Translations under genes and position numbers: made by a program
Source: a virus
Lineage: Duplodnaviria > Caudoviricetes
Virus record (IMG/VR): IMGVR_UViG_3300022221_000008
Location: 1 to 60,102 of that record
Reading direction: 5' to 3' (one strand)
DNA: 60,102 nucleotides
The notes under the pieces: generated by a model
What the model saw: the letters and a program-made list of their open reading frames with translations, nothing else
What the model was told of the DNA's origin: nothing
Databases searched by the model: none
Shown here: piece after piece, positions 3,004 to 58,645 of the stretch
How the letters are laid out: each line of letters starts with the position of its first letter
How positions within the stretch are numbered: the first letter of the stretch is position 1

Positions 3004-3858
3004 ATGGCTGCAACTGCATTCCAACGGCAGTACCGTCAGGAATACATTCACGGTTTCGAGGACCGTCAGTCGATTCTTCGGGCGACGACCGTCCAGGAGG
3101 CCGTGATCAAGGGCAACGAGGCCGTCTTCCTCGTGTCCGATTCCGGTTCCGCCACCGCACAGACCCGTGGGGTCAACGGCATGATCCCGGCCCGTGCGGA
3201 CAACAACAGCCAGCTCACCGCCACGCTTCAGGAATGGCACGACCTGGTCCGCAAGACGAACTTCAACATCTTCGCCTCTCAGGGCGATCAGCGGCGCATC
3301 ATGCAGGAAACCACCATGGCGGTGGTCAATCGCAAGATCGACGACATCATCATCGCCCAGCTCGACACCGCGACCAACGACACCGGCGCCGCCGCCACGG
3401 CATCGCTGGACATGGTTGTCTGGGCTCGGACGGTCTTGGGCAACAACTTCGTCGATCTAACCGACGAGGATAACATCTTCGGCCTCATCAGCCCGGCCTT
3501 CGAGGGCTACCTGATGCAGATTCCGGAGTATTCCTCGGCCGATTACGTCGAGGTCAAGCCCTTCACCGGCCCCGCCCGCCGCTTCCGTCGCTGGATGGGC
3601 GTCAACTGGATGTGCCACCCCCGTCTGACCGGCTCCGTCGGTGCCGGCGGCAGCGGCGCCTCCGAGCAGTGCTTCATGTATCACCGGAACTCCATCGGCT
3701 GCGCCCTCGACAAGGACGGCATCGATAGTCCGGTCGGTTACGACGAGGAGCAGGGCTATTCCTACGCCCGTGTCTCGATCAACCTAGGCGCCAAGCAGCT
3801 TCAGAATGCCGGTATGGTCATGATGAAGCACAATGGCTCCGGTTACGCGGCGCAATAA
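3004..3858 (+). CDS. Major capsid protein
   Basis: 284 aa; synteny after the scaffold; strong RBS; AVVNRKIDDIII and WMGVNWMCHPRL segments resemble podovirus capsids. Confidence 0.8.
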   Translation: MAATAFQRQYRQEYIHGFEDRQSILRATTVQEAVIKGNEAVFLVSDSGSATAQTRGVNGMIPARADNNSQLTATLQEWHDLVRKTNFNIFASQGDQRRIMQETTMAVVNRKIDDIIIAQLDTATNDTGAAATASLDMVVWARTVLGNNFVDLTDEDNIFGLISPAFEGYLMQIPEYSSADYVEVKPFTGPARRFRRWMGVNWMCHPRLTGSVGAGGSGASEQCFMYHRNSIGCALDKDGIDSPVGYDEEQGYSYARVSINLGAKQLQNAGMVMMKHNGSGYAAQ

Positions 3859-3870
3859 GGAGTATTGAGC

Positions 3871-4191
3871 ATGGCATATGCAGGCTCCACCGCTGGTTCG
3901 TCCGCCTCGAACCCCCCGGCTCTGATCACCTCCTGGTTGGCCGGCTCGACCGCCGGAGGCTCCACTGGGCTGCACGCCCACAAGGAGTTCTCCTATGTTT
4001 CCACCCACACCCAGGCGGAAGTCGCCGCGACCGGGTTCATCACCGACGCCAAGAGCCTCGGCATGAACCTGGGCGATGTGGTGCAGGTGCGTGGCTCGAC
4101 CACTTACCTGCTTTCCTACCACACGGTAAAGACGGTATCTTCCACTGGCGCTACCCTCTCGGCCGGGCTCCTGGTTAGCTCGGCATCCTGA
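3871..4191 (+). CDS. Putative capsid decoration protein, Ser/Thr-rich
   Basis: AAGGAG RBS directly after the capsid gene; GFITDAKSLGMNLGDVV motif; six ST dipeptides in 106 aa. Confidence 0.55.
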   Translation: MAYAGSTAGSSASNPPALITSWLAGSTAGGSTGLHAHKEFSYVSTHTQAEVAATGFITDAKSLGMNLGDVVQVRGSTTYLLSYHTVKTVSSTGATLSAGLLVSSAS

Positions 4192-33384: not shown

Positions 33385-33407
33385 GCCCTACCTGGGCCGG
33401 GTGGGGG

Positions 33408-33659: not shown

Positions 33660-33743
33660 CTGTCCTCTCCTTCAGTAATCCACAGCCGCAACGGCCCTGG
33701 GATTGATCACTCAATAGTCAGGCCCTACCTGGGCCGGGTGGGG

Positions 33744-34292: not shown

Positions 34293-34376
34293 AACCTTCC
34301 TCCTTCAGTAATCCACAGCCGCAACGGCCCTGGGATTGATCACTCAATAGTCAGGCCCTACCTGGGCCGGGTGGGG

Positions 34377-34832
34377 TTAGGGCAGGGGCCAGTCTTTTAG
34401 TTCTGGAGTGGACAGGCGCGTGACTAGACGGTTGCGCTGCCAAGTCTGGCTTGCGGCTTTGGCTGTGGTTCCGGCTGCTTCCCAATCAGCGGCTCGCGCG
34501 GCGTCAAAGGCTGCGTTTTCTGCTTCCAGTGAGTGTCTGGTTGCCGCCCAAGCTGCTGCCCAGGCTTTTACCCAAGCGGCATAGCGGGTTGCGTCATCGA
34601 TTTCGCCGCGTGCGAAGGCGCGGGCTGCGGCGATTGCATTACGTGGGGCCGTGGAATTTTGCGCTGCTTCATAGATATGTAGCGTGTGTGCGGCACAATC
34701 GGCTCGCCAGAGCCGCAACTTCTGGTCAATGTCTTTTTCAAGGCGCGCTACCTCTGATGCTATCCACACTAGGTCGGAAAGGGGGGTATTGGCGTTGATT
34801 AGCGAAAGGATCATGCTTGTGTTGTTTGCCAT
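34377..34832 (-). CDS. Imm5-like protein (cassette 1); paralog of 24962..25618
   Basis: DLVWIAS...LRLWRADCAAHTLHIYE...PRNAIAAARAFARGEI...DWPLP. Confidence 0.7.
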   Translation of the reverse strand: MANNTSMILSLINANTPLSDLVWIASEVARLEKDIDQKLRLWRADCAAHTLHIYEAAQNSTAPRNAIAAARAFARGEIDDATRYAAWVKAWAAAWAATRHSLEAENAAFDAARAADWEAAGTTAKAASQTWQRNRLVTRLSTPELKDWPLP

Positions 34833-43890: not shown

Positions 43891-44253
43891 ATGACCAGCC
43901 GTGCCTTCGAACCCTTCAAGATGATCGCGGGCACCACCGCGCCATCGCTCCAGGTCGGCGCCACGAACGTCTTCGTCTCGACCGCCTCGGCCTTGGAATC
44001 GACCGCCTTGAAGCGAGTCTGGCAGGGTCCGTCGGGCCGCGCGGTCAGGGTCGCGGAGAAGGACGGGCGCGATTTCTGGCTCAACTTCGGCTCTTCGGCC
44101 ATCACGGCCGGCGGCTCGACCGATTCCCTGCTGTTTTTGGGCGGCACCGTCGAAACCCAGCGCCTGGAGCCCGGCTGGACCCATGTGGCCATGCGGTCGG
44201 TTTCGACCTCGACCGGCGCCGTGGTCAACATCACCCTCGGCTATGGAGGCTGA
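43891..44253 (+). CDS. Putative virion accessory protein, ST-rich
   Basis: AGGAG RBS; beta-rich; VVNITLGYG C-terminus; 5 ST in 120 aa. Confidence 0.55.
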   Translation: MTSRAFEPFKMIAGTTAPSLQVGATNVFVSTASALESTALKRVWQGPSGRAVRVAEKDGRDFWLNFGSSAITAGGSTDSLLFLGGTVETQRLEPGWTHVAMRSVSTSTGAVVNITLGYGG

Positions 44254-44254
44254 C

Positions 44255-44794
44255 ATGCCGGCCCGCCACATTTCGACCACCGACATTCCCAGCGACGTGC
44301 TGATTTCCCTGGCGCGCGATCCCGACCAGTTCGAGAAGGGCATCCGGCGCTGGCAGGAAGCCGAAACCACCGCCAAGCGGGAGCAAAGGCGCCTCGCCGA
44401 GGTCGAGAAGAAGGCCTTGACGGCAACCGCCGCCCTGGAGGCCCTCAAGGCCGCCCACGAGGAAAGGGTCGCCGAGCGCGAACGGGTCTTCGCGATCCGT
44501 CAGGAAGCCCTCGATCAGCGGGAAACCAAGATCAACCAGCATGCGGCCCGCGACACCGAGGCTCGCCAAGTCCTCAAGGCCGACCGTGAGGAACTGGAGA
44601 ACGCCACCAAACAGTTGCAAGAAGGCGAAAGGCGCCTGAGCGACCGCGAGGTGGAGCTAGATAACCGGGCCGAAAAATTGAAGGCGGACGAGATCGCCTT
44701 GGCGGCGGTCGAAACCTTGATGAAGGAGCGCGAAGCCCGTCACAAGGCCCAATGGGTCGAACTCCAGGAGCGACTCAAGGGCTTTGCTTGGTGA
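44255..44794 (+). CDS. Coiled-coil protein
   Basis: E/R/K/A-rich heptads; GGAGG RBS. Confidence 0.65.
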   Translation: MPARHISTTDIPSDVLISLARDPDQFEKGIRRWQEAETTAKREQRRLAEVEKKALTATAALEALKAAHEERVAERERVFAIRQEALDQRETKINQHAARDTEARQVLKADREELENATKQLQEGERRLSDREVELDNRAEKLKADEIALAAVETLMKEREARHKAQWVELQERLKGFAW

Positions 44795-45477
44795 CACCGG
44801 TCCTGATTCAGGCGGGCGGCCGGGGGCTTCGGCTGCACCCGCTGACCGACCATAATCCCAAGCCGCTCCTGAAAGTTGGTGGTAAGCCGATCCTGGAAAC
44901 CATCATCGACGGCTTCGCGGCCCAGGGCTTCCGCCGCATCTGGCTTTCGGTCCACTACCGGGCCGACCTGATCAAGGGCCATTTCGGCGACGGCTCCGAG
45001 AAAGGCGTGAAGATCAAGTACCTGGAGGAAAAGTCCCCCCAGGGCACCGGCGGCGCGCTCAGATTGTTGCCGCGCTGGGACAAGCCCTTCATCGTTTCCA
45101 ACGCGGATGTCTTGACAAAAATCAACTATGGGCACCTAATGGAGGCACACGCGCGGGCCAATGTGCTGGCCACCGTGTGCGCCGGCCTCTACCAGCAACA
45201 GATCAAATATGGCGTCATTGATAGCGAGGATGGCCGTCTTTTGCGGGTGCGCGAGAAGCCAATCGAGAACTTCCAGGTCAACGCCGGCATCTATGTGCTC
45301 GAACCCGATGCCCGCGACTTCGCGCCCGAAGGCCCCTTCGACATGACCGACCTGATCGAACGCCTGCCCCAAGCGGGCGCCAGGGCGGGCGCGGCGGTCT
45401 ACCCCCTGACCGACTACTGGTGCGACATCGGCGGCTTCGAGGACTACGCCAGGGCCAATGCGGAGTGGAGCCATTGA
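44791..45477 (+). CDS. Sugar-phosphate nucleotidyltransferase (PtmE/LegX-like, no CBS domains)
   Basis: IQAGGRGLRLHPLTDHNPKPLLKVGGKPILE, GTGGAL, VNAGIYVL and YWCDIG motifs. Confidence 0.85.
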   Translation: MTPVLIQAGGRGLRLHPLTDHNPKPLLKVGGKPILETIIDGFAAQGFRRIWLSVHYRADLIKGHFGDGSEKGVKIKYLEEKSPQGTGGALRLLPRWDKPFIVSNADVLTKINYGHLMEAHARANVLATVCAGLYQQQIKYGVIDSEDGRLLRVREKPIENFQVNAGIYVLEPDARDFAPEGPFDMTDLIERLPQAGARAGAAVYPLTDYWCDIGGFEDYARANAEWSH

Positions 45478-46046
45478 GCGTTCTGGGCCTGATCCCCGCG
45501 AGGGGCGGTTCCAAGCGCATCCCGCGCAAGAACATCCGCCTTCTGGGCGAACACCCCTTGGTGCTCTGGACCATCTATCAGGCCAAGGAATCGGTCATGC
45601 TCGACGGCCTGGCGGTTTCGACCGAGGACCGGGAGATCGCCGATCTCTGCTGCGTTCATTGCGACGTGATCCGCCGCCCGCCAGAAATGGCCCACGATAC
45701 CGCCTCGTCCTATCCCCTGATGCTTCATGCGCTCGACCTCTGCGGCGGGGCCTACGAGTATCTCTGCCTCCTGCAGCCGACCAGCCCCTTCCGGGACGCC
45801 GACGATATCGACCAGTGCATCGCGGCCCTGAAGGTTTCGGGCGCCCCCGCCATGGCCTCCTTCACGCAAGGCGGTAAGGTGCCCAACGGCGCCATCTATG
45901 CCGCCCACACGTCCTGGCTAAGGGAGGGCGGGAACTTCGACGGCCCGGCGGTGGAGCCCTTCTGGATGCCGCCCGAAAGAAGTTTGGATATCGACACCGA
46001 GGACGACTGGAGCGAGGCCGAAACGGCCCTGATGGCAATGGCATGA
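45474..46046 (+). CDS. neuA: CMP-nonulosonic acid synthetase (acylneuraminate cytidylyltransferase, NeuA/LegF)
   Basis: IPARGGSKRIPRKN, LLQPTSPFR, PNGAIY and SLDIDTEDD motifs. Confidence 0.92.
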   Translation: MSVLGLIPARGGSKRIPRKNIRLLGEHPLVLWTIYQAKESVMLDGLAVSTEDREIADLCCVHCDVIRRPPEMAHDTASSYPLMLHALDLCGGAYEYLCLLQPTSPFRDADDIDQCIAALKVSGAPAMASFTQGGKVPNGAIYAAHTSWLREGGNFDGPAVEPFWMPPERSLDIDTEDDWSEAETALMAMA

Positions 46047-46990
46047 ACCCTTTCCAGGACCGCTACGACGCCTGCAACGGCGGCACCAATGCATCGAAAT
46101 ATGCCGAATTGCCCGATTTTCCGTGCATTATCGACGTGGAATTGACCTCTTCGTGCAATTTCAGGTGCTTGATGTGTCCCACCGGCAACAGATCGCTAAA
46201 GCGTCCTGCGGTTCTCATGACGGACAAGACCTTGCTGGCGATTATCGACCAGTGTGTGGAGCACGATACGGCGCTGCGCTTTATCGGCTGGGGCGAGCCG
46301 ACGCTGCATCCCGTCCTGGTCCCGGCCTTGCGGCAGGCCAGGGGCCTTCTGACGCACATCAACACCAACGGCTCCAAGATCACGCCGGAATTCGCCTTTG
46401 ACCTCGTGGAGGCCGGACTTTCCTCGATCAAGTTCTCTTTCCAGGGCGTCGATGCGGAATCCTACGAGGAGATGCGGCAGATCAGGTTTTTCGAGGGCAT
46501 GCTGAAGGCCATCAAGGTCATGCGAAGCGCACGCGGCGACAGAGCCCTGCCCTACATCGCGGCCTCGACCTCCATCACCTACGAGACGCCCAAGATGGTC
46601 GAGGACTTCCGCGCCCGGCTCGGGCCGTTGGTCGATCGCCTGTCGATCGGTCACACGACCTTCGACTTCATGGACATGAGCGCCGTGCGGCTCAGGCCGG
46701 GACAAAGGGCCATGCTGGAGCGCCTCAAGGGCTTGTCGAGCGATGCCAAGCAGCACCCCAGTCCTTGCCCGGAGGTCTTCCAGAAGCTCTCCATCCAGGC
46801 CGACGGGTCGGTGGTGCTCTGCTGCAACGATTTCGATGGCACGGTCAATCTGGGAAACGTGAACGCCATCCCGCTTTCCGATCTGTGGCGCCATCCCAAG
46901 ATCGAGGCCTACCGGAAACGGCTGGTGAGGGATGATTACGACGCGCCGCTGTGCCGGGACTGCTACGACTATATGGACCTGACCGGATGA
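46043..46990 (+). CDS. Radical SAM / SPASM-domain protein
   Basis: [21 protein letters not shown]...[10 protein letters not shown]...GNV and CRDC motifs. Confidence 0.9.
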
Positions 46991-47634
46991 CCGCCCTGGC
47001 GGCTCAGTACCGGCTCAAGGTGCCGCTCGGGAAGCAAAATCTCGCCATCGACGTGGTGGTCAGCGAACTGACCACCGAGGCCGACCGGGCCGCCATCGCG
47101 GAAATAGCCCAGGGCTTCGAGACGGCGATCGATGTCGGCTGCTTTACCGGCGGGTCTTCCAGCGCCATCCTGTCGGGCGGGGCCTCACTGGTCTGCGTCG
47201 ATACCTTCCGGGGCACGGCGGGAGACTATACCGGCCGGGTGCCGGGCTGGATAGTCCTGCGTATTCTGGAGGCCCGGCTGGAACCTCACCGGGGGCGGTT
47301 TTCGGTCTTCATGGGCAGTAGCGACCAGGCCGCGAAGCTTCTCCGGCCAGCCGACTTCATCTTCATCGACGCCGCTCATGACTACAGGTCCGTGATGGCC
47401 GATATCGCCGGCTGGCTGCCCCTGGTGAAGCCGGGCGGTATTCTGGCGGGGCACGATTTCGACAAGGCCCTGCTCGACCGTCCGCGCGAAGACCTCACGC
47501 CATATCTGGACTACGAGTATTATCAGGGCTTGCATTACGGCGTCGTGGCTGCGGTGCGGGACAGCCTCGCATCCTTCCACTGCGCCGAAGACCCGGACAG
47601 CACGGTCTGGTGGACCGAAAAGGAGATGATATGA
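46987..47634 (+). CDS. Class I SAM-dependent methyltransferase (Methyltransf_24-like)
   Basis: [31 protein letters not shown] and [10 protein letters not shown] motifs. Confidence 0.85.
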
Positions 47635-48848
47635 CCCCTCTTTGGAGTGCCGAAGTCGAGGCCCGTATCCGCCGGGAAGCCGTCAACCTCGACCCGCAGC
47701 GACCGCCCGAGACGGTCCAGATGTGCAAGCGCTGCGTCATGACCAACCAGCGCCCGAGGATCGTGTTCGACGAAGAGGGCGTCTGCTCGGCCTGCCGCTA
47801 TGCTGAACGGAAGAAGACCGAAATCGACTGGGCCGAGCGCGAACGGGAGTTGCGTGAGTTGCTCAACATGAATGTTGCCGGAGCGTACGATGTGATCGTT
47901 CCTTCGTCCGGTGGCAAGGACTCTTCCTTTGTGGCCAGCACTTTGAGGGATACTTACGGCCAGCACGTTCTCTGTGCCCGCTGGGCGCCCTTCATGACGA
48001 CTGAGATCGGTGAGCGCAATTGGCAGGCCCTTATTCATGCCGGATTTGACACGGTCACGGGCCAGCCCAACGGGCTTCTGCATAGAAAGCTCGCCCGGCT
48101 GGCTCTTGAGTTTGTGGGGGACCCTTTTGTACCTTTCATTTTTGGCCAACTCTGTTACCCGCTTCATGTTGCGGTGCAAAATGATGTCCGTTTAGTGTTT
48201 TTCGGAGAAAATGGCGAAACGCTCTATGGTGGTGACACCGCTGCGGAGAACAAGCCCTGCTGGGGTTCGGCCGATTGGGAGCGGGTTTATATGAAGGGGG
48301 CGGGTGTTGATAGAATTGTCCAAATCGGCTTGGACCTTGGCGCCATTGAGCCTGATGAAGTGAAGCGGGTTAGCCCATTTTATCGACTCCCTGAAATTGA
48401 TAATCCGCCGGAATTTCATTGGACAAGTTATTATTTGCCTTGGTTCCCACAGGAAAATTTCTACATTGCTGCGGAAAAAACAGGTTTTGAGCCGAATGAA
48501 GAACGATCTCAGGGCACGTACTCAAGATATGCATCGATTGACGACAAAATGGATAACGTTCACTATTTTTTCGGGTATTTGAAATTTGGCATTGGACGTT
48601 GCACATCAGATGCCGCTCATGAGATCAGAGACGGAGAGCTTACGAGGGAAGAGGGACTCTCTTTGGTGGCGAAATACGATGGTGAATATCCATCGCGCCA
48701 TTTGTCAGAGTGCCTTGATTATCTTGATATGGACAAAGAGCAATTTGGTCGTGTTGTTGAGCGTTTCGATATGGCTAGGAACGGCAAGGCGGGTTTGGGC
48801 AATGTGGCGCTCGGACCAGTTAGGCAAGGATTGGCAAGGCAGGCTTAA
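47631..48848 (+). CDS. N-acetyl-sugar amidotransferase (WbuX/PseA/PtmG family)
   Basis: [26 protein letters not shown]-loop SGGKDSS, and [20 protein letters not shown] motifs. Confidence 0.88.
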
Positions 48849-49646
48849 GTGCTCGCCTTCAGATTAATAGCTAGGCTCGATATAAGAAACGAGTTCCTGA
48901 TCAAGACTCGGCAATGCGAGGGTGTCAGAAAGGTCGGCGACCCGGCAGAATATGCGGAGAGGTACGATGCGGCAGGAATCGATGAAATTATCTTCTTGGA
49001 TGTTGTTGCCTCTCTATATGGTCGCAATAGTCTTGCTGGCATTGTTGGCCATGTTGGAGAATCTGTGTTTGTCCCTCTCTCGTCTGGTGGCGGCATTGGT
49101 TCGATTGATGGTTCGCGCGCTCTGTTCCTCGCCGGAGCGGACAAAATTATACTCAATAGTGCGGCAGTGCATGACAACGGACTTCTCAGCAGACTTGCCA
49201 GAAAGTTCGGCTCCCAGGCGGTCGTTCTCCAACTCGACGCCAAGCGGCGGAACGGCTCATGGGAAGCCTATTGCGAGGGCGCAAGACAACCGACCGGACG
49301 GGACGCGATAGAATGGGCCAGGGAGGCGGTGGACCGGGGCGCGGGGGAAATCCTTGTCACGTCGATTGACCGGGAAGGCACGTCGAAGGGCTTCGATCTT
49401 GACCTCGTGCGGGCGGTATCGTCTGCGGTCACGGTCCCTGTGGTGGCGGCGGGCGGTTTCGGCCAGGCATCCGATGCGCTGGCCGCCCAACAAGCGGGTG
49501 CCTCCGGGGTAGCCATCGCGGGCGCCCTACACTATAATCGGGTCAAGCTCGACGAAATAAGAGCGGTCTTGGCCAAAGCTGGGGTGAATGTTCGATGCGG
49601 TGTTTCGTCACCGGTGCTTGCGGATTTATCGGCTCCCATCTCGTAG
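48849..49646 (+). CDS. hisF: HisF-like cyclase subunit associated with sugar amidation (WbuZ-like)
   Basis: RLIARLDI, VGDP, GGGI, GADKI and GAGEILVTSIDREGT motifs; adjacent to the amidotransferase. Confidence 0.85.
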   Translation: MLAFRLIARLDIRNEFLIKTRQCEGVRKVGDPAEYAERYDAAGIDEIIFLDVVASLYGRNSLAGIVGHVGESVFVPLSSGGGIGSIDGSRALFLAGADKIILNSAAVHDNGLLSRLARKFGSQAVVLQLDAKRRNGSWEAYCEGARQPTGRDAIEWAREAVDRGAGEILVTSIDREGTSKGFDLDLVRAVSSAVTVPVVAAGGFGQASDALAAQQAGASGVAIAGALHYNRVKLDEIRAVLAKAGVNVRCGVSSPVLADLSAPIS

Positions 49647-50497
49647 AGACGCTTGTGGCCGAGGGTCACGACGTAACCGGTCTGGCGCTCTACAATCCAA
49701 GTCAATCCTGGGGCTGGCTGGAGGGCATCGAGGCCCGCAAGGCCCACGGCGACGTGCGCGATGCCGAGCAGATGCGCCGCCTGATCAAGGGTCACGAGGC
49801 GGTCTTTCACCTCGCGGCCCAGATCGAAGTTCCCTACAGCTTCGTCGCCCCCCGTTCCTTCATCGACACCAACGTCACCGGCACGCTGAATGTCCTGGAA
49901 GCCTGCCGGGCCACTGGTGCGAAGCTGATCCACACCTCTTCCTCGGAGGTCTACGGCACCGCCGCCTACACGCCCCAGGACGAGGCTCATCCGCTTCAGG
50001 CGCAGTCGCCCTATGCGGCTTCGAAGATCGCCGCCGATGCCCTGGTGACCTCCTATCATCGCAGCTACGATCTGCCGGCGGTGATCCTGCGGCCCTTCAA
50101 CACCTACGGACCCCGCCAGTCCGAGCGGGCCGTCATTGCCAGCATCATCCTGCAGGACTTGCGCGACGGCGCCGTGACCCTGGGCGACCTGCGCCCCCAT
50201 CGGGACTTCCTCTATGTCGAGGACACCGTGCGGGCCTTCATGGCGGTCATGAAGCTGTCGGGCGGCGTCTACAATGCCGGCACGGGCATATCGATCAGCA
50301 TCAAGGACTTGGCGGCCAAGATCATCACCTATGCGGCCGCGCAGGGAGAGTACCGCCCTGAGAATGCCGAGGTCCATCTGTTGCGGGCTTCCTCGGCCAA
50401 GCTCTTCGCCGAAACTGGTTGGCGGCCCCGAGTTTCCCTGGATGAGGGTCTGAAACGCACAAAGGAGTGGTGGCATGATTCCGTTAGCCGTTCCTAA
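49595..50497 (+). CDS. legB: NDP-GlcNAc 4,6-dehydratase (LegB-like)
   Basis: VTGACGFIGSHL, VFHLAAQIEVPYSFVAPRSFIDTNVTGT, LQAQSPYAASK and RPFNTYGPRQSERAVI closely match LegB. Confidence 0.85.
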   Translation: MRCFVTGACGFIGSHLVETLVAEGHDVTGLALYNPSQSWGWLEGIEARKAHGDVRDAEQMRRLIKGHEAVFHLAAQIEVPYSFVAPRSFIDTNVTGTLNVLEACRATGAKLIHTSSSEVYGTAAYTPQDEAHPLQAQSPYAASKIAADALVTSYHRSYDLPAVILRPFNTYGPRQSERAVIASIILQDLRDGAVTLGDLRPHRDFLYVEDTVRAFMAVMKLSGGVYNAGTGISISIKDLAAKIITYAAAQGEYRPENAEVHLLRASSAKLFAETGWRPRVSLDEGLKRTKEWWHDSVSRS

Positions 50498-51323
50498 TCT
50501 GACCGGCAAGGAGGGCGAGTACGTGGCCGAGGCCATCGCGTCCGGCTGGGTCGGTCCCGAGGGGCCGTTCGTGGAGCGTTTCGAGGGAATGGTTCGTGAA
50601 GTATCGGGTCGGCGCTGGGCCATTGCGACAATTACGGGCAGCGCGGCCTTGCACGCCTCCGCAACGGCGCTGGGTTTCGCCGGTGACTGTGTGGTGGTGA
50701 TGAGGAAGTCTTTTCCTGCCGCCAGGAATGTATTTCGTTCCCTTGGGTGCGACGTTGTTTTTTCTGAAGGCGGGGAAAACCATGATATTGCGGCCTATTC
50801 TCCGGGCACCATGAAATGGCCTGTGCTTGTGGACGCCGCCCCAGCCATAGGAAACAAACCCATCGGAACTGTTGAATGCTACAGCTTTGCCGCCAATAAG
50901 ACCGTGACCTGTGGACATGGCGGGGCGGTTGTCGGCGACGATCCGAGCTTGGAGGGCCGGGTCACAATGCTGATCAACAATCGCACCGGCAAATACAACT
51001 ACCGCATGGCCAATATCAACGCCGCCATCGGCTGTGCCCAGATGGAACGGCTGGAGGAATTCCGGGAGATCAAACGCAATATCTGGCAGCGCTATGCCGA
51101 TGCTGGGCTGCCCATGATCGACCGTGGCCCGAGCCGCTGGATGTCCACTATTGAGCAGCCGAAAGTTTTTTTCATAGGCGGTTTTAGGCACCGTCTAGAG
51201 GGCGTAGGCGGTTTTAGGCACCGTCTAGAGGCCGATTGGGGAATCAGCCTCCCCTGTTCCACATCTCTCACCAGGGATGATCAGGACAAGGTGATCAAGG
51301 CTTGCGAAGAATCCTTGCGATAG
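50475..51323 (+). CDS. legC: PLP-dependent sugar aminotransferase (LegC/DegT family), shortened
   Basis: IPLAVPNL...SGWV, GSAALH, DAA, SFAANKTVTCGHGG and YNYRMANINAAIGCAQME motifs. Confidence 0.8.
   Translation: MIPLAVPNLTGKEGEYVAEAIASGWVGPEGPFVERFEGMVREVSGRRWAIATITGSAALHASATALGFAGDCVVVMRKSFPAARNVFRSLGCDVVFSEGGENHDIAAYSPGTMKWPVLVDAAPAIGNKPIGTVECYSFAANKTVTCGHGGAVVGDDPSLEGRVTMLINNRTGKYNYRMANINAAIGCAQMERLEEFREIKRNIWQRYADAGLPMIDRGPSRWMSTIEQPKVFFIGGFRHRLEGVGGFRHRLEADWGISLPCSTSLTRDDQDKVIKACEESLR
51175..51231. repeat. Tandem duplication with 30-bp period inside the aminotransferase
   Basis: TAGGCGGTTTTAGGCACCGTCTAGAGG at 51175 and 51205 (GGFRHRLE twice). Confidence 0.9.
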
Positions 51324-52225
51324 AGAGCGGGCGCCACGACGCCACGCCGCTGAAGCCGGTCGTGAGTGAACTGCGCCGCCAGGGCTGTCATGTCCTGTGC
51401 TACGACGTGAAAGCCGGCGCAATCGAGAATGCTTTCAAGAAGCCCTGGGATATCGTTCTGCTGCTGGGCGACCGCTGGGAATCCCTGGCCGTCGCGACTG
51501 TCGCGGTCGTGGCGAACGTCCCCATCGCGCACATCCATGGTGGAGAGGCGACGTTCGGTTCCCATGACAACCAGATCAGGGATGCGATCTCCAAGCTGGC
51601 CAGCATCCATTTCGTCGCCAACGACGCCTTCAAGTGCCGGCTCGTGCTGGGCCTGGGCGAGGATGGCTGGCGCGTCCACGTCACGGGGGCACCGGGCCTG
51701 GACAACCTGACCAACCTCCCGCCCCGGAGCCCGGAGGCGTATTTCGTCTGCACCTATCACCCTGCCACCCTGCAGGAGAACTCCGACCTGCCGGCCCTTC
51801 TCTCTGCTCTCGACCGCTTCCCCGACTACCAACAAATCTGGACGGGCGTAAACGATGACCCAGGAAGCAAGGAGATCGCCGCTTTACTGGCCGGCCGGGA
51901 TGTTCGGCTACTGTCTGACCGTGAGTACCATCTGCTGTGCCGCCATGCTGCTGCGGTGGTGGGCAATTCCTCCAGCGGCATCATCGAGGCTCCGACGCTC
52001 GGCGTGCCGACGGTGAATGTCGGAACGCGGCAAGAGGGCCGGCTCCAGGGGCCGTCGGTCTTTGATTGCGATGCGAAGTCGATCCACTATGCCCTTGTGC
52101 GGGCGATCAAATACGGCGGGCCTTATGAGAACCCCTATGGCGAACCGGGCGCTTCGGCCAAGATCGCCCGCGTTCTTTCGACAATCGACCTCGAGGGCAT
52201 ACAGGTGAAGCGATGGTCTGTGTAG
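51302..52225 (+). CDS. neuC: Hydrolysing NDP-sugar 2-epimerase (NeuC/LegG)
   Basis: LLGDRWE, IAHIHGGE, GAPGLD, TYHPAT, GNSSSGIIEAP and VNVGTRQEGR motifs. Confidence 0.9.
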   Translation: MRRILAIESGRHDATPLKPVVSELRRQGCHVLCYDVKAGAIENAFKKPWDIVLLLGDRWESLAVATVAVVANVPIAHIHGGEATFGSHDNQIRDAISKLASIHFVANDAFKCRLVLGLGEDGWRVHVTGAPGLDNLTNLPPRSPEAYFVCTYHPATLQENSDLPALLSALDRFPDYQQIWTGVNDDPGSKEIAALLAGRDVRLLSDREYHLLCRHAAAVVGNSSSGIIEAPTLGVPTVNVGTRQEGRLQGPSVFDCDAKSIHYALVRAIKYGGPYENPYGEPGASAKIARVLSTIDLEGIQVKRWSV

Positions 52226-53013
52226 TGGCGGAAATCGGAATTAATCATCAAGGCTCCCTGAATCTAGCTCATACCCTAATTAATCATGCCGCCCAGGCGG
52301 GCGCGGACGCGGTGAAGTTTCAGCTCTACCGTCCCTTTCTCCTGTCGCCGCCTGGTCCCTGGCGGGACATGCTCAAGACGCTGGCCCTTCCGACGGGGCT
52401 CTATCCGGACCTCAAAGCCTATGCGGAAGCCCTCGATCTGGAATTCCTCTGCACGCCCTTCGATGTCATGTCCTTGGAATTCCTGGTCGATATGGGCGTG
52501 AAGCGGCTCAAGATTTCCTCCGGCGGGTTAAGGGATATGGCCCTTCTGGAGGCGGCTCGATCGAGCGGTTTGGACTTGATCCTCTCGACCGGCATGGCGA
52601 CCGTTTCCGACATCCGGGAGGCCATGCGCGCGCTCAACTGGCCCAAGGTCTTCATGCTGCAATGCACCAGTTGTTACCCGACGCGGCCCTCGGACGTTCA
52701 CCTGCGGGTCATGGACACCTACCGGCGGGAGTTCGACGCACTGCCGGGCCTGTCGGACCACACCACCGGTATCGCGGTGCCCATCGCGGCCACAGCTTTG
52801 GGCGCCAAAATGATCGAGAAGCACCTGACCCTGGACCGTGATGCGGAGGGGCCGGATCATCAAGCCTCCATCGAGCCGGCGCAGTTCAAGGCCATGGTCG
52901 AGGGCATCCGGGAAGCAGAACAGGCTTTGGGCTCGGATGAGAAGGCCCCGCTCGACTGCGAGGCGCCGGTGATGAAGATCAGAAATGAGAGGGAAAAATG
53001 GCGATCATTATAG
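52213..53013 (+). CDS. neuB: Nonulosonic acid synthase (NeuB/LegI), lacking the C-terminal SAF domain
   Basis: VAEIGINHQG, GADAVKFQ, LKISSG, ILSTGM, QCTSCYP, GLSDHT and IEKHLTLDR...GPDHQAS motifs. Confidence 0.92.
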   Translation: MVCVVAEIGINHQGSLNLAHTLINHAAQAGADAVKFQLYRPFLLSPPGPWRDMLKTLALPTGLYPDLKAYAEALDLEFLCTPFDVMSLEFLVDMGVKRLKISSGGLRDMALLEAARSSGLDLILSTGMATVSDIREAMRALNWPKVFMLQCTSCYPTRPSDVHLRVMDTYRREFDALPGLSDHTTGIAVPIAATALGAKMIEKHLTLDRDAEGPDHQASIEPAQFKAMVEGIREAEQALGSDEKAPLDCEAPVMKIRNEREKWRSL

Positions 53014-53480
53014 GAAATGGCGGGCACGCAAGGGCGCTTGCCCATCGATATTTCCCTGGTGAGAATGTGCGGATGCTTGGCCCCAATGAAGAAATACCAA
53101 TCGAGGGGGACTTAATAATTGGCATGGGGGACGTAAAAACAAGACGGGTAATCTTTAGACTTCTTGAGAGCAGAATCGCATATAATCAGCAGATTATGGC
53201 CGGCGTTCTTATCGGCCCGCATGTTCATTTAGGAAAGAACATTCTTATCAATACTGGCGCCCAGATTGACCATGATTGTGTTATTGGCGACCACTGTTCC
53301 ATCGCTCCCGGCGCCATTCTTTGCGGCGGCGTGACCCTTGGCGAGGGCTGCTTTATCGGGGCCGGCGCCATCATCGTGGAGAACGTGACCCTTGAGCCCA
53401 ATACCTTCATACCTGCCGGATCGCTGGTTGTTAAACAGGACGATATCCGCATGCCGCAGCGCGTGGTACAGAACGGTTGA
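52998..53480 (+). CDS. neuD: Hexapeptide-repeat sugar acetyltransferase (NeuD/PglD/LegH family)
   Basis: IIGNGGHA and INTGAQIDHDCVIG motifs; left-handed beta-helix repeats. Confidence 0.85.
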   Translation: MAIIIGNGGHARALAHRYFPGENVRMLGPNEEIPIEGDLIIGMGDVKTRRVIFRLLESRIAYNQQIMAGVLIGPHVHLGKNILINTGAQIDHDCVIGDHCSIAPGAILCGGVTLGEGCFIGAGAIIVENVTLEPNTFIPAGSLVVKQDDIRMPQRVVQNG

Positions 53481-54246
53481 GCCGCTTCTTCTCTGGCGGG
53501 CTCGTCTGAATTGCGGGCCGGCCATTCAAGACCGCAGCCCCCTGATTACGGTCTATATCCCGACATATAATCGGGAGGAACTTCTGATGACGAGGGCGCT
53601 GCCCAGCGTTCTCAAGCAGACCTATGGAAACATAGAAATCATTGTTGCTGCCCATGGCAGCAGCGAAGAGAACATAAGAGCCTTGGCTCGTGCAAGCGTC
53701 GAAGTGTATTTTGCCGAGCGTGACTTCGTTCCTCTTTGTGTGCCTCGTTATAGCGCCTATCCACCGACGGCGGAGAACCACTGGCTCGCCGGCCCTGTCG
53801 CGCCGGCCAATGCCGCGCTCAGGCTCGCCAAGGGAGACTGGATTGCAAGGATCGACGACGATGATACCTGGACCCCGGACCGCCTGGAGAAGCTTCTGTG
53901 CTTCGCTCAGGCGAACGATTTCGAGTTCGTATCGGCTGCGCACGAGACGCACGAGGGCAAGGTTGCTCCCTACGACCTGATGGGAACGAAGATCGGCGGC
54001 ACGCAGACCTGGCTTTACCGCTCCTATTTGAGGTTCTTCCGCTACAATCCCGACTGCTGGCGCAAGACTTGGCACCGGGTCAACGACACCGATCTACAAC
54101 ATAGGATGTGGCGTGCCGGCGTCCGCATGGGATATCTAGACGAAGTGGTGGCAAAAGTGTTACCAAGGCCCGGCGAAAACGCCGTGGGCTTAAGAGCCTA
54201 TCGGGAAGACCGGGCGAACAAGGAACGCCAAATGGCCTTCGATTAG
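53392..54246 (+). CDS. Family 2 glycosyltransferase (start uncertain)
   Basis: ITVYIPTYNREELL..RALPSVLKQTYGNIEIIV and GDWIARIDDDD motifs. Confidence 0.85.
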   Translation: MSPIPSYLPDRWLLNRTISACRSAWYRTVEPLLLWRARLNCGPAIQDRSPLITVYIPTYNREELLMTRALPSVLKQTYGNIEIIVAAHGSSEENIRALARASVEVYFAERDFVPLCVPRYSAYPPTAENHWLAGPVAPANAALRLAKGDWIARIDDDDTWTPDRLEKLLCFAQANDFEFVSAAHETHEGKVAPYDLMGTKIGGTQTWLYRSYLRFFRYNPDCWRKTWHRVNDTDLQHRMWRAGVRMGYLDEVVAKVLPRPGENAVGLRAYREDRANKERQMAFD

Positions 54247-54289: not shown

Positions 54290-54754
54290 ATGTTTTCCAT
54301 CAGGACTTCCATCCATGGCCGCCGGCTTGCCCTTTCGTCCAGCGGCGGCATCGTTTCCGATCCCTCGGGCTCGACCCAGGGCGCCGACCGCTCGGCCCAG
54401 ATGTGGGGCCGGGGTTTGTTCGAAACCGTTTCCGGTGCCGTCGGGGCGATCTCGAACTCCGGTGTCAGCATCGTCTCCAGCGACTCCACGTCCGGTTCCT
54501 CCATGCCGGTTGCGGCCCCCGTCCAGGGCGTCGAAAAGGAGATCGTGTTCCAGACCTCGGCGACGGCCCTGGTTCTCCATACCACCGCCACCACGATCAA
54601 GTTCAACTCGACCCTGGCCGAATCCGCCGCCGGGGGTTCGACCACCCTCACCGTGACCGGCGCCGCCGCCGGTATCGGTGGAACGCTGGTCCTGCGCGGC
54701 TTGTCTGCGACGGCCTGGCAGATCAAGAGCGCAACCGTGAGTGTATCTTCCTGA
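54290..54754 (+). CDS. Ser/Thr/Gly-rich putative virion protein
   Basis: Beta-rich composition; IRTSIHGRRLAL N-terminus; the true start may be slightly upstream. Confidence 0.5.
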   Translation: MFSIRTSIHGRRLALSSSGGIVSDPSGSTQGADRSAQMWGRGLFETVSGAVGAISNSGVSIVSSDSTSGSSMPVAAPVQGVEKEIVFQTSATALVLHTTATTIKFNSTLAESAAGGSTTLTVTGAAAGIGGTLVLRGLSATAWQIKSATVSVSS

Positions 54755-54763
54755 GGAGCTTGA

Positions 54764-55699
54764 ATGACTAACAGCGCTGGGGCCGCGAAACAGCGGAAGA
54801 TCGCCATTCTCGGTACGACGCCCTCCAGGATGCAGGCGCCTTTAAAGGACGAGTCCTGGGAAATCTGGACCATCGGCCCGGGTGGCAAGGACGCCAACAG
54901 ATGGAGCCGGTTGTTCGAAACCCACACGGTCTGGCCGTTGGATTTCGGCGAACTGAAGGATGACAAGTCCTATCTGGACGACCTCTCGAAGGTCGATGGC
55001 GAGCAGTCGGTCTACAGCATCGTGGACATGAAAACCCACTTGCCGCGCTGGGCGCACGATCATGGCAAGAACGACGATTGGCTCAAGGCCAACGTGCGGG
55101 GCGAATGGAAGACCAACGTGGTGATCGACCGCGAGGCGCTTTTCACCAAGTACCGGCGCATGTGGTTCTCCACCTCGATCTGTTATGCGCTCGCCTTGGC
55201 CATCGAGGAGGGCGCGACCGATATCGGCTGCTGGGGCATCGACCTGGAATCGGGCGAGGAATACATTTCGCAGCACGCCGGCTGTGCCCATTTTCTGGAC
55301 TTGGCCCGGCTTCTGGGCATCAACCTGCACTTCCCCAACGGTTGCGGCCTGACCCGCGATCTCAATCCCTATCCGGATCGCTACGAGACGCACCTTTCCC
55401 TTACCTTAGAGAAGAAGGCCGCCTGGCTGCAGCACATGATTGGTGAGCACGAGCCGCAATACGAAGCGGTGCGGGCCGAAATGTTCCGGATCGAGGGCGC
55501 CAGCATCATCCTGAAAAAGATTCTGGCTCGCAACACGCCCGTTACCCAGGAGGAGATCGCCCTCGCCGACCAGGAATTGATGAATGCCAACCGAAAGCAG
55601 GGTCAACTAGCCTCCAACATCAACCACCTGAAGGGCGAGTTGTCCGCCACCCAGTATTACCGCCGCATGTATGTCTGGGGGATGATCGACCCGGCATGA
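54764..55699 (+). CDS. Candidate CstII/Maf-like (sialyltransferase-fold) glycosyltransferase with C-terminal coiled coil
   Basis: KIAILGTTPS and STSICYALALAIEEGATDIGCWGIDL resemble the two conserved GT42/Maf motifs (recalled, not searched). Confidence 0.5.
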   Translation: MTNSAGAAKQRKIAILGTTPSRMQAPLKDESWEIWTIGPGGKDANRWSRLFETHTVWPLDFGELKDDKSYLDDLSKVDGEQSVYSIVDMKTHLPRWAHDHGKNDDWLKANVRGEWKTNVVIDREALFTKYRRMWFSTSICYALALAIEEGATDIGCWGIDLESGEEYISQHAGCAHFLDLARLLGINLHFPNGCGLTRDLNPYPDRYETHLSLTLEKKAAWLQHMIGEHEPQYEAVRAEMFRIEGASIILKKILARNTPVTQEEIALADQELMNANRKQGQLASNINHLKGELSATQYYRRMYVWGMIDPA

Positions 55700-57291
55700 G
55701 CGCCCTTGACGAACTGGTCCAAAAAATCGAGCGGATGAGCCCGGATCAGCTCAAGGAGCTGGATCGGCAAATCCTCGAAGACCCAGAGTTCGGTAACCGC
55801 TGGGCGCCCAATGCGGGGCCGCAATACGACGCCTACATTTCAGAGGCTGACATACTATTGTATGGCGGCCAAGCCGGAGGCGGGAAAAGCGGCCTGATCA
55901 TTGGACTGGCTTTGACGCGGCATAGGCGCTCGCTTCTGATGCGCCGCCAGTACACCGATCTCGGCGCCTTGCAGGACGATTGCCTAGAGAAATACGGGAC
56001 GCGCGTCGGCTATTCCGGCCAGCCGCCGGCCCGCCTGAAGACCAAGGACGAGCGTTTGATCGAGTTCGGTGCCGCCAAGATGCCGGGCGACGAGGAGCAT
56101 TGGAAGGGCCAGCCCCATGACTTTCTCGGCCTGGACGAGGCGTCCCAGTTTCTTGAGTCCCAGGTTCGCTTCCTGCTTGGCTGGCTGCGCTCGACCAGTC
56201 GGGGCCAGCGTTGCCGGGCCGTCCTGGCGACCAACCCGCCCGACAAGCCCGCCGAGGGCCAATGGCTGGTGAAGATGTTCGGCCCCTGGCTCGACCCCAG
56301 CCATCCCCTGCACCCGACGCCCAATGGGATGCTGCGCTGGGTCGTTTCGGACGAAGAGGGTCACGACAAGTGGGTTGACGGGCCGGAAGACGTGCGGATC
56401 GGCGGCAAGTTGGTGAGGCCGTCTTCCCGAACCTTCATCCCGGCGGCCCTCAAGGATAATCCTTTCCTGGCCAAGACCGAATATGCCCGGCAACTGGACG
56501 GCCTGCCCGAGCCCCTGCGGAGCGCCATCCGCGACGGCAACTGGATGATCGCCCACGAGGACGACCCCATGCAGGTCATTCCGACCAATTGGGTCATCGC
56601 CGCGCAGGAACGCTGGACCCGCGACCCGCCGGATGCGCCCATGTGCGCCATCGGAGTCGATGTGGCCATGGGCGGGAAGGCACAGACCGTCCTGGCGCCG
56701 CGTTACGATTGCTGGTTCGCCGAACTGACCGCGATCCCCGGCGTCCAGACCCCCACCGGGCGGGATATCGCGGCGGAAGTCATCAAGGTGCGGCGCAATT
56801 CGGCCAAGGTTTGCATCGACATGGGCGGCGGGTACGGCAGCGGAGCCTACGAATGCCTGCAGGAGAACATCGGGGCCGAGAACGTGATCGGGTTCAAGGG
56901 CGCCGACGCGGTTGCGAGCCGGACCAAGGACCGCTTGCTGCCCTTCGCGAACAAGCGCGCCGAGGTTTACTGGCGCTTCCGCGAGGCGCTCGACCCCGAC
57001 CAGGAGGGTGGCAGTCCCATTATGCTGCCGCCGGATTCCGAACTGGCCGCCGATCTGGTGTCGGTGCGCCGGCTCGATATCGACACGACGCGCGGTAAAA
57101 TCCAGTTGGAGCTGAAAGAAAAGCAGGCCCAGCGCCTGGGGCGCTCGCCGGACAAGGGCGATGCGGTCGTGATGGCCCACGACACCGGCCCCACCTATCT
57201 GACCCATGGGGAGATTTGGCGCGACACGAACCGAATGCGGCGCAAGCCGGTCGTGATCCGGGGCCATGCGAACAGAAAGCGTCGGCGATGA
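55696..57291 (+). CDS. terL: Terminase large subunit
   Basis: Walker A YGGQAGGGKS, Walker B LGLDEA, LATNP, nuclease IGVDVA and RSPDKGDA motifs. Confidence 0.92.
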   Translation: MSALDELVQKIERMSPDQLKELDRQILEDPEFGNRWAPNAGPQYDAYISEADILLYGGQAGGGKSGLIIGLALTRHRRSLLMRRQYTDLGALQDDCLEKYGTRVGYSGQPPARLKTKDERLIEFGAAKMPGDEEHWKGQPHDFLGLDEASQFLESQVRFLLGWLRSTSRGQRCRAVLATNPPDKPAEGQWLVKMFGPWLDPSHPLHPTPNGMLRWVVSDEEGHDKWVDGPEDVRIGGKLVRPSSRTFIPAALKDNPFLAKTEYARQLDGLPEPLRSAIRDGNWMIAHEDDPMQVIPTNWVIAAQERWTRDPPDAPMCAIGVDVAMGGKAQTVLAPRYDCWFAELTAIPGVQTPTGRDIAAEVIKVRRNSAKVCIDMGGGYGSGAYECLQENIGAENVIGFKGADAVASRTKDRLLPFANKRAEVYWRFREALDPDQEGGSPIMLPPDSELAADLVSVRRLDIDTTRGKIQLELKEKQAQRLGRSPDKGDAVVMAHDTGPTYLTHGEIWRDTNRMRRKPVVIRGHANRKRRR

Positions 57292-58193
57292 GGATTCTCG
57301 TCACCGGCGGAGCGGGCTTCATCGGCTCGCATCTTTGCGGGCGGCTATTGACCGAACACGAGGTTGTCTGTCTCGACGATCTCTCGACCGGCTCTTTGGA
57401 GAACATTCGGCGCCTCCTGTCCAACGAGCGCTTCCGTTTGATCCGTTCCGATGTTCGCACGGTGCCGCTTGAGCCCTTCGATCAAATCTACCACCTGGCC
57501 TGCCCGGCCTCTCCCGTCCATTACCGGAAAGACCCGCTCCAGACGCTGCGGACCTGCTTCGAAGGGACCGACAGGTTGCTCGGCCTGGATGCGCGCTTTC
57601 TCATGGCCTCCACTTCGGAAGTCTACGGCGATCCCCTGCATCACCCCCAGACGGAGGACTATTGGGGCAACGTCAACCCGATCGGGCCACGGGCCTGTTA
57701 CGACGAAGGTAAGCGAGTCGCGGAGGCGCTCTGCTTCGACTACGGACGCTTGGGCGCCGATATCCGAGTAGCGAGAATCTTCAACACCTACGGCCCCCGG
57801 ATGCAGATCGACGATGGCCGGGCGGTGTCGAACTTCATCGTCCAGGCCCTGCGGAACGAGCCGCTGACGGTTTACGGCGACGGCTCACAGACGCGCTCCT
57901 TCTGCTATGTGGACGATATGGTCGAGGGTCTGATCCGCATGATGGAGCGGAATATTCCAGGCCCGATCAACCTGGGCAATCCGGAAGAGATCAGCATCAA
58001 GACACTGGCGGAAACGATTTTGACCATGACCGGCAGCAAATCGTCTATTATCCACAAGACCTTGCCGGGCGACGACCCGAAGCGCCGCCGGCCGGCAATC
58101 GATCTGGCCGCGCGGGCTCTCGGCTGGGCGCCGCACACGACCCTTAGAGAGGGATTGGAGCGCACTATCGCTTACTTCAGGGCTGTCCTATGA
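57288..58193 (+). CDS. uxs: UDP-glucuronate decarboxylase (UDP-xylose synthase)
   Basis: VTGGAGFIGSHL, HLACPASPVHY, STSEVYGDP and YWGNVNPIGPRACYDEGKRVAE motifs. Confidence 0.9.
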   Translation: MRILVTGGAGFIGSHLCGRLLTEHEVVCLDDLSTGSLENIRRLLSNERFRLIRSDVRTVPLEPFDQIYHLACPASPVHYRKDPLQTLRTCFEGTDRLLGLDARFLMASTSEVYGDPLHHPQTEDYWGNVNPIGPRACYDEGKRVAEALCFDYGRLGADIRVARIFNTYGPRMQIDDGRAVSNFIVQALRNEPLTVYGDGSQTRSFCYVDDMVEGLIRMMERNIPGPINLGNPEEISIKTLAETILTMTGSKSSIIHKTLPGDDPKRRRPAIDLAARALGWAPHTTLREGLERTIAYFRAVL

Positions 58194-58645
58194 GCCATGT
58201 TCGCAAAGCCGTCCCTGGCGACCTCGGCCAATTGGTCGCCATGGCACGGGATTTCACCGGTGAGTCGGCCCTGCCGCTGACCTTCAACCGGGAGAAGTCG
58301 GCGCATTATCTCTTGTGGTTAATCGGCCAACCGGCCTATGACGTTCTTGTCGAGCAGGATGGCGATGTCATCAGCGGCGCGGCCATCGTAGGCTACGAAG
58401 CCCATTGGTACGATGAAACCTGCGCCTATGTGGAAAAGATGTTCGTTCACAAGGAATTCCGGGGGCTCGGTACCGCCAGGGCGCTGGTGAGGGAAATCGT
58501 CCTTGCCTGCCAGGCGCGCGGCGCCGTCATCGTTTTCGCCGCCTCGACCGCCGGGATGGGCGAACGGACGGAAAAGCTGTATGTTAGGCTTTTCGAGCGC
58601 GCGGGCTTCACGTTCCTCGGGCGCGTCATGCAAAGGATACTGTGA
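58190..58645 (+). CDS. GNAT-family acetyltransferase
   Basis: MFVHKEFRGLGTARAL (acetyl-CoA motif A) and FERAGF. Confidence 0.85.
   Translation: MSHVRKAVPGDLGQLVAMARDFTGESALPLTFNREKSAHYLLWLIGQPAYDVLVEQDGDVISGAAIVGYEAHWYDETCAYVEKMFVHKEFRGLGTARALVREIVLACQARGAVIVFAASTAGMGERTEKLYVRLFERAGFTFLGRVMQRIL

Follow-up and report, generated by a model that had tools for sequence, protein, structure and literature searches.

The gene at 54764..55699 of a 60,102-nucleotide stretch of tailed-phage DNA (positions 1 to 60,102 of the IMG/VR record IMGVR_UViG_3300022221_000008, Duplodnaviria; Caudoviricetes; hereafter the window) encodes a 311-aa protein, here called mini-Maf, which is most aptly regarded as a minimal branch of the Maf/MptE-like superfamily that is specific to phages, closest to Maf and outside the current Pfam family PF01973. 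On the strength of sequence comparisons and structure models, we consider it probable, though well short of assured, that mini-Maf glycosylates a protein of the phage itself with a cytidine monophosphate (CMP)-activated nonulosonate that the phage makes. A first-pass annotation had proposed the protein as a candidate protein O-nonulosonyltransferase with a fold like that of CstII and the Maf flagellin glycosyltransferases, an interpretation supported within the limits of a computational analysis, sugar transfer being a prediction. Its further suggestion of a new glycosyltransferase family holds in that mini-Maf represents a divergent, phage-restricted branch undetected by PF01973, but the fold is not an unrelated one and belongs to the Maf/MptE-like superfamily.

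Bacteria are known to decorate their flagella, capsules and lipopolysaccharide with nonulosonic acids. If the proposal is right, bacterial viruses can attach sugars of the sialic-acid-like kind to their own particles. Neither phage-encoded Maf-like transferases nor nonulosonate-glycosylated virions were found in the literature, for which coverage of subscription journals was incomplete. Naming the family would also supply an annotation for a “hypothetical protein” that is common among environmental phages, and mini-Maf, half the size of bacterial Maf proteins and accompanied by a candidate cognate acceptor, would be an attractive minimal system for the study or engineering of protein O-sialylation-like chemistry.

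The mini-Maf gene and its relatives

The gene is preceded by a ribosome-binding site (GAGGAG, 7 nt before the ATG), and its stop codon shares the tetranucleotide ATGA with the start codon of the terminase gene terL. The features concerned are the following:

54764..55699, + strand: mini-Maf gene, ATG start, 311 aa; candidate CMP-nonulosonate protein O-glycosyltransferase
54791..55381, + strand: Maf/CstII-fold domain of mini-Maf, residues ~10-206 (structure model)
Residues 207-305 of mini-Maf, + strand: C-terminal two-helix hairpin (structure model)
55696..57291, + strand: terL (phrog_979, E 1.9e-30); start overlaps the mini-Maf stop

The unannotated 311-aa open reading frame (ORF) before terL was confirmed; the next ORF matches terL families of PHROGs. 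The mini-Maf ORF is a real, conserved gene. Its relatives at E ≤ 1e-3 number 219 among 90%-identity clusters and 1295 among representatives of 50% clusters. All 120 entries listed out of these 219 lack both Pfam domains and informative names. When 35 close members and 23 distant ones were aligned, two motifs stood out as the best-conserved regions. The first, KIAILGTTPS, is present but lies at residues 12-21 behind an 11-residue leader, not at the very start of the protein as had been stated; the second, STSICYALALAIEEGATDIGCWGIDL, was found as described, at residues 136-161. G17, G158, E166, A181 and Y203 are invariant across the 23 distant members, P26, D29, W32, W35, H54, D160, Y167 and Q170 are nearly so, and S138 is invariant within the close family. 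The letters of the CstII motifs to which both had been likened are presumed here; in CstII chains, a Maf-domain profile matches residues 128-165 (E 1e-3), which is the CstII region that the first-pass annotation had named.

PF01973 (gathering score 34.6 bits) does not match mini-Maf at E ≤ 0.01, gives no match at E ≤ 1 in a six-frame scan of the whole record, and yields a single sub-threshold match (P0208, E 0.31) among 30 distant relatives. The GT42 CST-I model PF06002 likewise gives no match to the protein in a Pfam-A scan (E ≤ 0.01). The family is phage-restricted: in 185,579 species genomes (one per species), the only match to the close-family profile was on a 2-kb contig of a Kiloniellaceae metagenome-assembled genome (MAG). 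The sole relative in a cultured phage, 27% identical, is encoded by Microcystis phage Mvi-Yong1342-1 (locus L018, PP496355.1, 34781..35584), where it precedes separate terS and terL genes and is annotated as “type 11 methyltransferase.” Because an Atlas viral cluster fuses the mini-Maf fold to methyltransferase domains, this label may have been carried over from such fusions. Two copies of mini-Maf occur in L004 (G003), in tandem at 32659-33459 and 33579-34466, and in L016 (G013), about 9 kb apart.

Predicted fold and structural neighbours

The full-length AlphaFold model (predicted local distance difference test, pLDDT, 89.3) consists of an alpha/beta domain (~10-205) followed by a hairpin of two helices (207-255 and 262-305); of the C-terminal coiled coil that had been proposed, the long helices are present but are modelled as this hairpin. 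VIA structure searches with the full model returned rows that covered the hairpin only (199-311) and were uninformative on the domain. Since hairpin look-alikes filled these searches, residues 10-206 (the N-domain) were modelled alone (AlphaFold; pLDDT 87.3, predicted template modelling score 0.85) and compared by VIA with 48,161 PDB representatives.

First in rank was the Maf protein of M. magneticum (5mu5_A; Z 10.4, root-mean-square deviation 3.1, 151 residues, model 1-188 on chain 272-499), followed by MptE, an archaeal 6-hydroxymethyl-7,8-dihydropterin pyrophosphokinase (8sd5, Z 9.4), Cst-I (2p56, Z 8.6, 157 residues) and SteA (9hmy, Z 8.2). No other chain attains Z ≥ 8, and each of these four is a member of the Maf/MptE/GT42 fold group. 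Lower in the ranking stand GT29 sialyltransferases, which span Z 6.1-7.1 (ST3Gal-I, Z 7.1; ST6GALNAC2, Z 6.3; ST8SiaIII, Z 6.1), and thiamine pyrophosphokinases (Z 5.6-6.9). Foldseek against the PDB placed CstII (1ro7) at the top for both the full-length and the N-domain models (E 1.0-1.1e-3, probability 1.00), with the P. multocida sialyltransferase 9c08, Cst-I, MptE, SteA and ST6GALNAC2 next for the full model. As modelled, the domain has the Maf/DUF115/GT42 variant of the GT-A fold, an assignment in which we have more confidence than in the full mechanism; the CstII/Maf fold predicted from the sequence is thus borne out, with Maf, MptE/DUF115 and Cst-I as the best neighbours. The fold alone is no proof of glycosyl transfer, because MptE and SteA have it too.

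Sequence relation to Maf and putative active-site residues

A Maf reference set was assembled from 12 PF01973 domains, encoded in alphaproteobacterial genomes by genes whose open frames span 683-1219 aa. When the broad phage family was aligned with these domains by hhalign, the match extended over 127 columns with E 4.4e-5 and a probability of only 69%, and it paired GTTPS with GSGPS and WGIDLE with FGVDLG. The Maf profile itself matches 5mu5 with E 6.2e-69, the aspartate of GVDLG being D415 and the glutamate of the E-N motif E324, and it matches MptE with E 2e-8. According to a published study, E324 and D415 of the M. magneticum protein (MmMaf) and D272, D357 and S334 of CbMaf are needed for activity (bioRxiv 10.1101/2020.06.03.131540).

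Because hhalign pairs GIDLE with GVDLG, D160 is placed by the alignment at the catalytic aspartate position of Maf, opposite MmMaf D415, the counterpart of CbMaf D357. The serines S137 and S138 precede D160 by 22-23 residues, as CbMaf S334 precedes D357 by 23, and in the hhalign alignment they fall no more than two columns from the Maf P-T-V motif. E52, a conserved acid at the end of the third strand (49-51), is a candidate counterpart of MmMaf E324 (D272 in CbMaf), the second critical acid of Maf. Family hidden Markov models (HMMs) searched against PDB sequences returned coiled-coil noise and one weak GT42 match, to 9c08 (E 1.8), at the G-I-D motif.

Linkage to nonulosonate genes and fusion to CMP-sugar synthetases

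The close lineage comprises 17 viral loci, of which 13 records were searched for NeuB and 12 loci were scanned for neighbours. NeuB is encoded by eight of the 13 records; nonulosonate-pathway or other sugar-nucleotide genes lie at most 8 kb upstream of mini-Maf in all 12 loci, including five without NeuB, four of whose records are only 31-44% complete. A GT2 glycosyltransferase gene stands upstream of mini-Maf in nine of the 12.

A more distant subfamily with a WGVDM motif (~30% identical) occurs on at least 287 viral contigs, and 50 of 80 loci were chosen from it in favour of longer records. NeuB was found in 29 of the 50 records and a cytidylyltransferase in 26, and among the 13 records at least 90% complete each of the two genes occurs in 10; mini-Maf lies ~2-6 kb from NeuB in nine of the ten near-complete NeuB-positive records. 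For the reverse test, 40 of 80 NeuB loci were chosen (≥30 kb, giant-virus MAGs excluded) and 39 were searched, L161 being left out. A mini-Maf member was recovered in 22/39 of these NeuB-bearing viral records, and in 8/8 of those at least 90% complete; 13 of the 22 positive records were new, being absent from earlier retrievals. The base rate of NeuB among GenBank phage records is low (3/50,697, tblastn).

Nine 90%-identity clusters of 475-513 aa (P0263, P0269-P0276) fuse a CTP_transf_3 domain (PF02348) to the mini-Maf domain, a Rosetta-stone fusion that ties this domain to a CMP-sugar. The longest contig with such a fusion measures 49,935 bases. Co-occurrence of mini-Maf homologs with neuA/neuB in phages, which had been named as a check on the proposal, is thus seen in both directions and against a low base rate, and nine CMP-synthetase fusions accompany it.

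The sugar gene cluster of the window

In the window, mini-Maf is the last gene of a cluster that includes LegB, LegC, NeuD, NeuC, NeuB and CMP-synthetase genes. Of the names given below, only WbuX scores above its curated NCBIfam cut-off, whereas the Pfam matches are all above theirs:

44752..45477, + strand: sugar-1-phosphate nucleotidyltransferase (PF00483, E 2e-33)
45420..46046, + strand: CMP-nonulosonate synthetase (PF02348, E 1.9e-19; TIGR03584 PseF, E 1.5e-29, below cut-off)
46043..46990, + strand: radical SAM/SPASM enzyme, probably sugar tailoring (PF04055, PF13186)
46951..47634, + strand: Methyltransf_24 methyltransferase, probably sugar tailoring (PF13578)
47610..48848, + strand: WbuX-type amidotransferase (TIGR03573, 293.9 bits, above the cut-off of 203.2)
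48849..49646, + strand: WbuZ/HisF-like partner (TIGR03572, E 2.5e-72, below cut-off; PF00977)
49595..50497, + strand: LegB-type NAD-dependent 4,6-dehydratase (PF16363, PF01370; TIGR04180, E 3e-100, below cut-off)
50475..51323, + strand: LegC-type aminotransferase (PF01041, E 7e-35; TIGR04181, E 3.3e-39, below cut-off)
51302..52225, + strand: NeuC/LegG-type hydrolysing 2-epimerase (PF02350, E 4.2e-48; TIGR03568, E 1.1e-65, below cut-off)
52213..53013, + strand: NeuB-family nonulosonate synthase, LegI-like (PF03102, E 4.1e-71; TIGR03569, E 2.7e-82, below cut-off)
52998..53480, + strand: NeuD/LegH-type hexapeptide N-acetyltransferase (Hexapep; TIGR03570 NeuD, E 2.2e-31, below cut-off)
53392..54246, + strand: GT2 glycosyltransferase at the cluster end (PF00535, E 1.4e-20)

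Judged by these family matches, WbuX and WbuZ form an acetamidino-forming pair, and the genes of the cluster together amount to a legionaminic-acid-type pathway that includes acetamidino tailoring, a reading for which we take the Campylobacter and Legionella pathways, as generally known, to be the guide. Pfam scans and the six-frame PF01973 scan revealed no second candidate transferase for the CMP-sugar in the window; GT2 enzymes normally use nucleoside diphosphate (NDP)-sugars.

The sugar loci of L002, L003, L007, L010, L011 and L016 also hold a radical SAM enzyme, alone or paired with a methyltransferase, and L004 has a B12-binding radical SAM enzyme in place of the window type; the recurrence of such genes suggests unusual sugar tailoring. 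A different tailoring set (PIG-L deacetylase, methyltransferase, WbqC) lies beside NeuB in the 92-kb L041 (L041:5773-8904). HNH endonuclease genes interrupt the sugar clusters of two relatives (L010:1861-2295 and L016:5114-5611). Outside the main cluster, the interval between terL and the portal gene in the window also contains two genes of sugar type, one for an NAD-dependent epimerase/dehydratase (57216..58193) and one for a GNAT acetyltransferase (58190..58645).

It could be argued that mini-Maf is not a glycosyltransferase at all, and instead works inside the sugar pathway on the sugar itself, free or bound to CMP, either as a small-molecule enzyme like MptE or thiamine pyrophosphokinase or as a tailoring enzyme that binds nucleotides. 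MptE (Z 9.4) and the thiamine pyrophosphokinases are indeed structural neighbours, PF01973 spans MptE as well as Maf, the Maf profile detects MptE, and both the fusion to CMP-sugar synthetases and the methyltransferase fusions of the Atlas viral cluster would fit such a role too. We nonetheless regard it as quite improbable, given that Maf is the top match and the aligned motif contains the Maf catalytic aspartate, that the pathway of the window is complete to the CMP-sugar and would otherwise have no transferase for it, and that mini-Maf is kept together with a Ser/Thr-rich partner in L036 and L019, phages without a sugar pathway.

Candidate acceptors

Two Ser/Thr-rich proteins of the window come into consideration as acceptors:

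54290..54754, + strand: 154-aa Ser/Thr-rich protein, 30% Ser+Thr, directly upstream of mini-Maf; candidate acceptor
3871..4191, + strand: small post-capsid protein, 30% Ser+Thr (phrog_18004); acceptor proposed in the first-pass annotation
3004..3855, + strand: major head protein (PF19821; phrog_3437), preceding 3871..4191

The Ser+Thr content of the 54290..54754 protein compares with 8-13% in the enzymes and structural proteins checked. The protein is conserved in the close lineage and in distant ones, among them L036 and L019; the pair persists in L036 despite the lack of sugar genes, and in L019, which has a P22-type portal, it comes after the capsid gene. An ORF matching the partner HMM ends at most 900 nt upstream of mini-Maf in 75 of 94 usable loci (15/16 close, 60/78 distant), and only two matches fall elsewhere, one of them in L004, where the second mini-Maf copy stands in between. 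The nearest Atlas clusters of the partner are viral and unnamed and offer weak leads only, to phage cement, a depolymerase beta-sandwich and fibre proteins. As for the 3871..4191 protein, it has phrog_18004 in common with a 93-aa protein of L072 encoded between the capsid gene and mini-Maf, and pairwise BLASTP between the two was not significant. Because its gene linkage is the stronger, the 54290..54754 protein ranks first and is the likely acceptor, the 3871..4191 protein being a possible one; a location in the virion is predicted for either. In L041, a DPBB lytic transglycosylase-like gene lies just ahead of the partner gene and mini-Maf.

The same chemistry might instead be directed at the host, with flagellin, pilin, S-layer or a surface glycan as acceptor and a remodelled cell surface, for example one that blocks superinfection, as the result. 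In the sources consulted, all characterised Maf enzymes act on flagellin; the lone bacterial-genome match and one named homolog point to alphaproteobacterial MAGs, and the placement of the candidate acceptors in the virion is a prediction. Flagellin glycosylation by nonulosonates is common in alphaproteobacteria. Mini-Maf, however, lies within the packaging/head module in translational coupling to terL, travels with a Ser/Thr-rich phage protein in 75/94 loci, and at 311 aa has none of the large flagellin-binding flanking domains of the 12 bacterial Maf frames, while one match in 185,579 species genomes gives no sign of lysogenic conversion. Flagellin is an unlikely acceptor for mini-Maf, and a host acceptor in general seems to us improbable, if worth keeping in mind.

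The position of mini-Maf directly upstream of terL, overlapping it in the window and in most relatives, together with the long helical hairpin, would also suit a non-enzymatic accessory of packaging or assembly (small-terminase-like or scaffolding) that retains an old nucleotide-binding fold. This we hold to be highly improbable. Small terminases of their own are encoded by L036 (Sf6-type; PF20901, E 2.1e-44) and, according to its annotation, by the Microcystis phage, and in L019 and L072 mini-Maf comes after the capsid gene rather than standing beside terL. Moreover, conservation across the 23 distant members peaks at the active-site-like motifs, and short members exist without the hairpin (e.g., P0195, 192 aa). 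An identity as the small terminase itself was rejected on the same separate terS genes and the L019 and L072 gene positions, and also because no TerS family of Pfam or PHROGs matches mini-Maf. The window ORF 44183..44791 shows no detectable similarity to the Sf6-type TerS of L036 (BLASTP E 1.4).

Proposed mechanism and the evidence that weighs on it

Under the proposal that mini-Maf modifies a phage protein, the cluster at 44752..53480 would make a CMP-activated nonulosonate of the legionaminic-acid type, probably with an acetamidino group and further tailoring. Mini-Maf would bind this CMP-sugar at the GTTPS loop, the start of the SSS helix and the end of the GIDLE strand, with D160 as the key acid, and, late in infection, would move the sugar onto the hydroxyl groups of Ser/Thr residues in a phage protein. 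The acceptor would most likely be the 54290..54754 protein, with the 3871..4191 protein or the capsid as alternatives, and the outcome would be a virion surface bearing a sialic-acid-like sugar. The fold relation, the motif positions, the gene linkages and the fusion are directly seen; from them we infer catalysis, the donor sugar, the acceptor and the presence of the acceptor on the particle.

Several observations weigh against this proposal. Mini-Maf matches nothing in Pfam-A (E ≤ 0.01), PHROGs or NCBIfam, and the close family on its own aligns with Maf in hhalign at a probability of 8.8%. The same method sets the second critical acid of Maf, E324, opposite P58 and not opposite the conserved E52. 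In the structural comparison, the scores of SteA and of the pyrophosphokinase MptE come close to that of Maf. Among the gene neighbourhoods, L007, a complete close relative, has a cytidylyltransferase, a nucleotidyltransferase and a radical SAM enzyme but no NeuB, and three of the 13 near-complete distant records (L019, L036 and L072) carry mini-Maf with neither NeuB nor a cytidylyltransferase. Moreover, most of the co-occurrence phages have a common synteny (sugar cluster, mini-Maf, terL, T7-type portal), so that the counts do not represent independent events. Finally, no experiment on any member of the family was found in the literature.

A broader proposition is that a mobile two-gene cassette, made up of a dedicated Ser/Thr-rich virion surface protein and a minimal Maf, coats the particles of many unrelated tailed phages with sialic-acid-like sugar of the legionaminic or pseudaminic type, drawn from a phage pathway or, if there is none, from the host CMP-sugar pool; this we put forward tentatively, with some doubt prevailing. 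It would amount to a post-translational modification system of the virion that is undescribed for phages and that could alter adsorption, recognition by grazers or immune systems, and particle stability.

Comparison with known systems

In Maf proteins (5mu5 and those of Campylobacter, Aeromonas, C. botulinum and G. kaustophilus; PF01973), the central domain is the top structural match for mini-Maf, and the profiles of the two align over 127 columns at a probability of only 69%; Maf proteins have in common with mini-Maf the G-x-D-L aspartate and genetic linkage to CMP-pseudaminic or CMP-legionaminic pathways. On the other hand, mini-Maf has neither the N-terminal domain nor tetratricopeptide repeats, only a C-terminal hairpin (311 aa vs. 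frames of 683-1219 aa), and it is undetected by PF01973, phage-restricted and paired with a Ser/Thr-rich phage protein.

The GT42 enzymes (CstII 1ro7, Cst-I 2p56 and P. multocida 9c08) resemble mini-Maf in their modified GT-A fold, in a helix-strand motif that ends in G-I-D, and in a CMP-sugar donor, which for mini-Maf is predicted only. They differ in that the Pfam-A scan gives no match at the sequence level and in that GT42 enzymes sialylate glycans (galactose or sialic acid of lipooligosaccharide), not protein. CstII has a catalytic His188 and phosphate-binding tyrosines. With MptE (8sd5), which falls under the Pfam model of Maf, and with the thiamine pyrophosphokinases the likeness is one of fold, whereas mini-Maf is tied to nonulosonate genes and a Ser/Thr-rich protein and has no folate or thiamine gene context.

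In the sialylation of Shewanella flagellin, Maf-2 acts in a tripartite system with GlfM, a predicted four-helix-bundle specificity factor, and Maf-1 in a bipartite one (bioRxiv 10.1101/2023.12.03.569772). The likeness lies in a Maf-type enzyme that works with a small cis-encoded protein; the phage partner, in contrast, is Ser/Thr-rich with beta-sandwich-like leads and in this resembles an acceptor more than it does an adaptor. Mycobacteriophage-encoded glycosyltransferases are thought to glycosylate the phages' own capsid (PMC11256854), and would thus also be phage transferases acting on their own particle. Such systems use ordinary NDP-sugar glycosyltransferases and are not known to involve a nonulosonate pathway or a Maf-fold enzyme.

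Additional observations on the window and related loci

The window record is classed with direct terminal repeats, yet its CheckV completeness is 62%. In several related loci, the ORF at the terL position is longer (769-892 aa) than the 531-aa terL product of the window (L006:7922-10597, L009:8027-10333, L014:8993-11437 and L016:8790-11342). The long ORF of L006 has a LAGLIDADG match, which suggests an intein or a homing endonuclease inside the terL of this locus.

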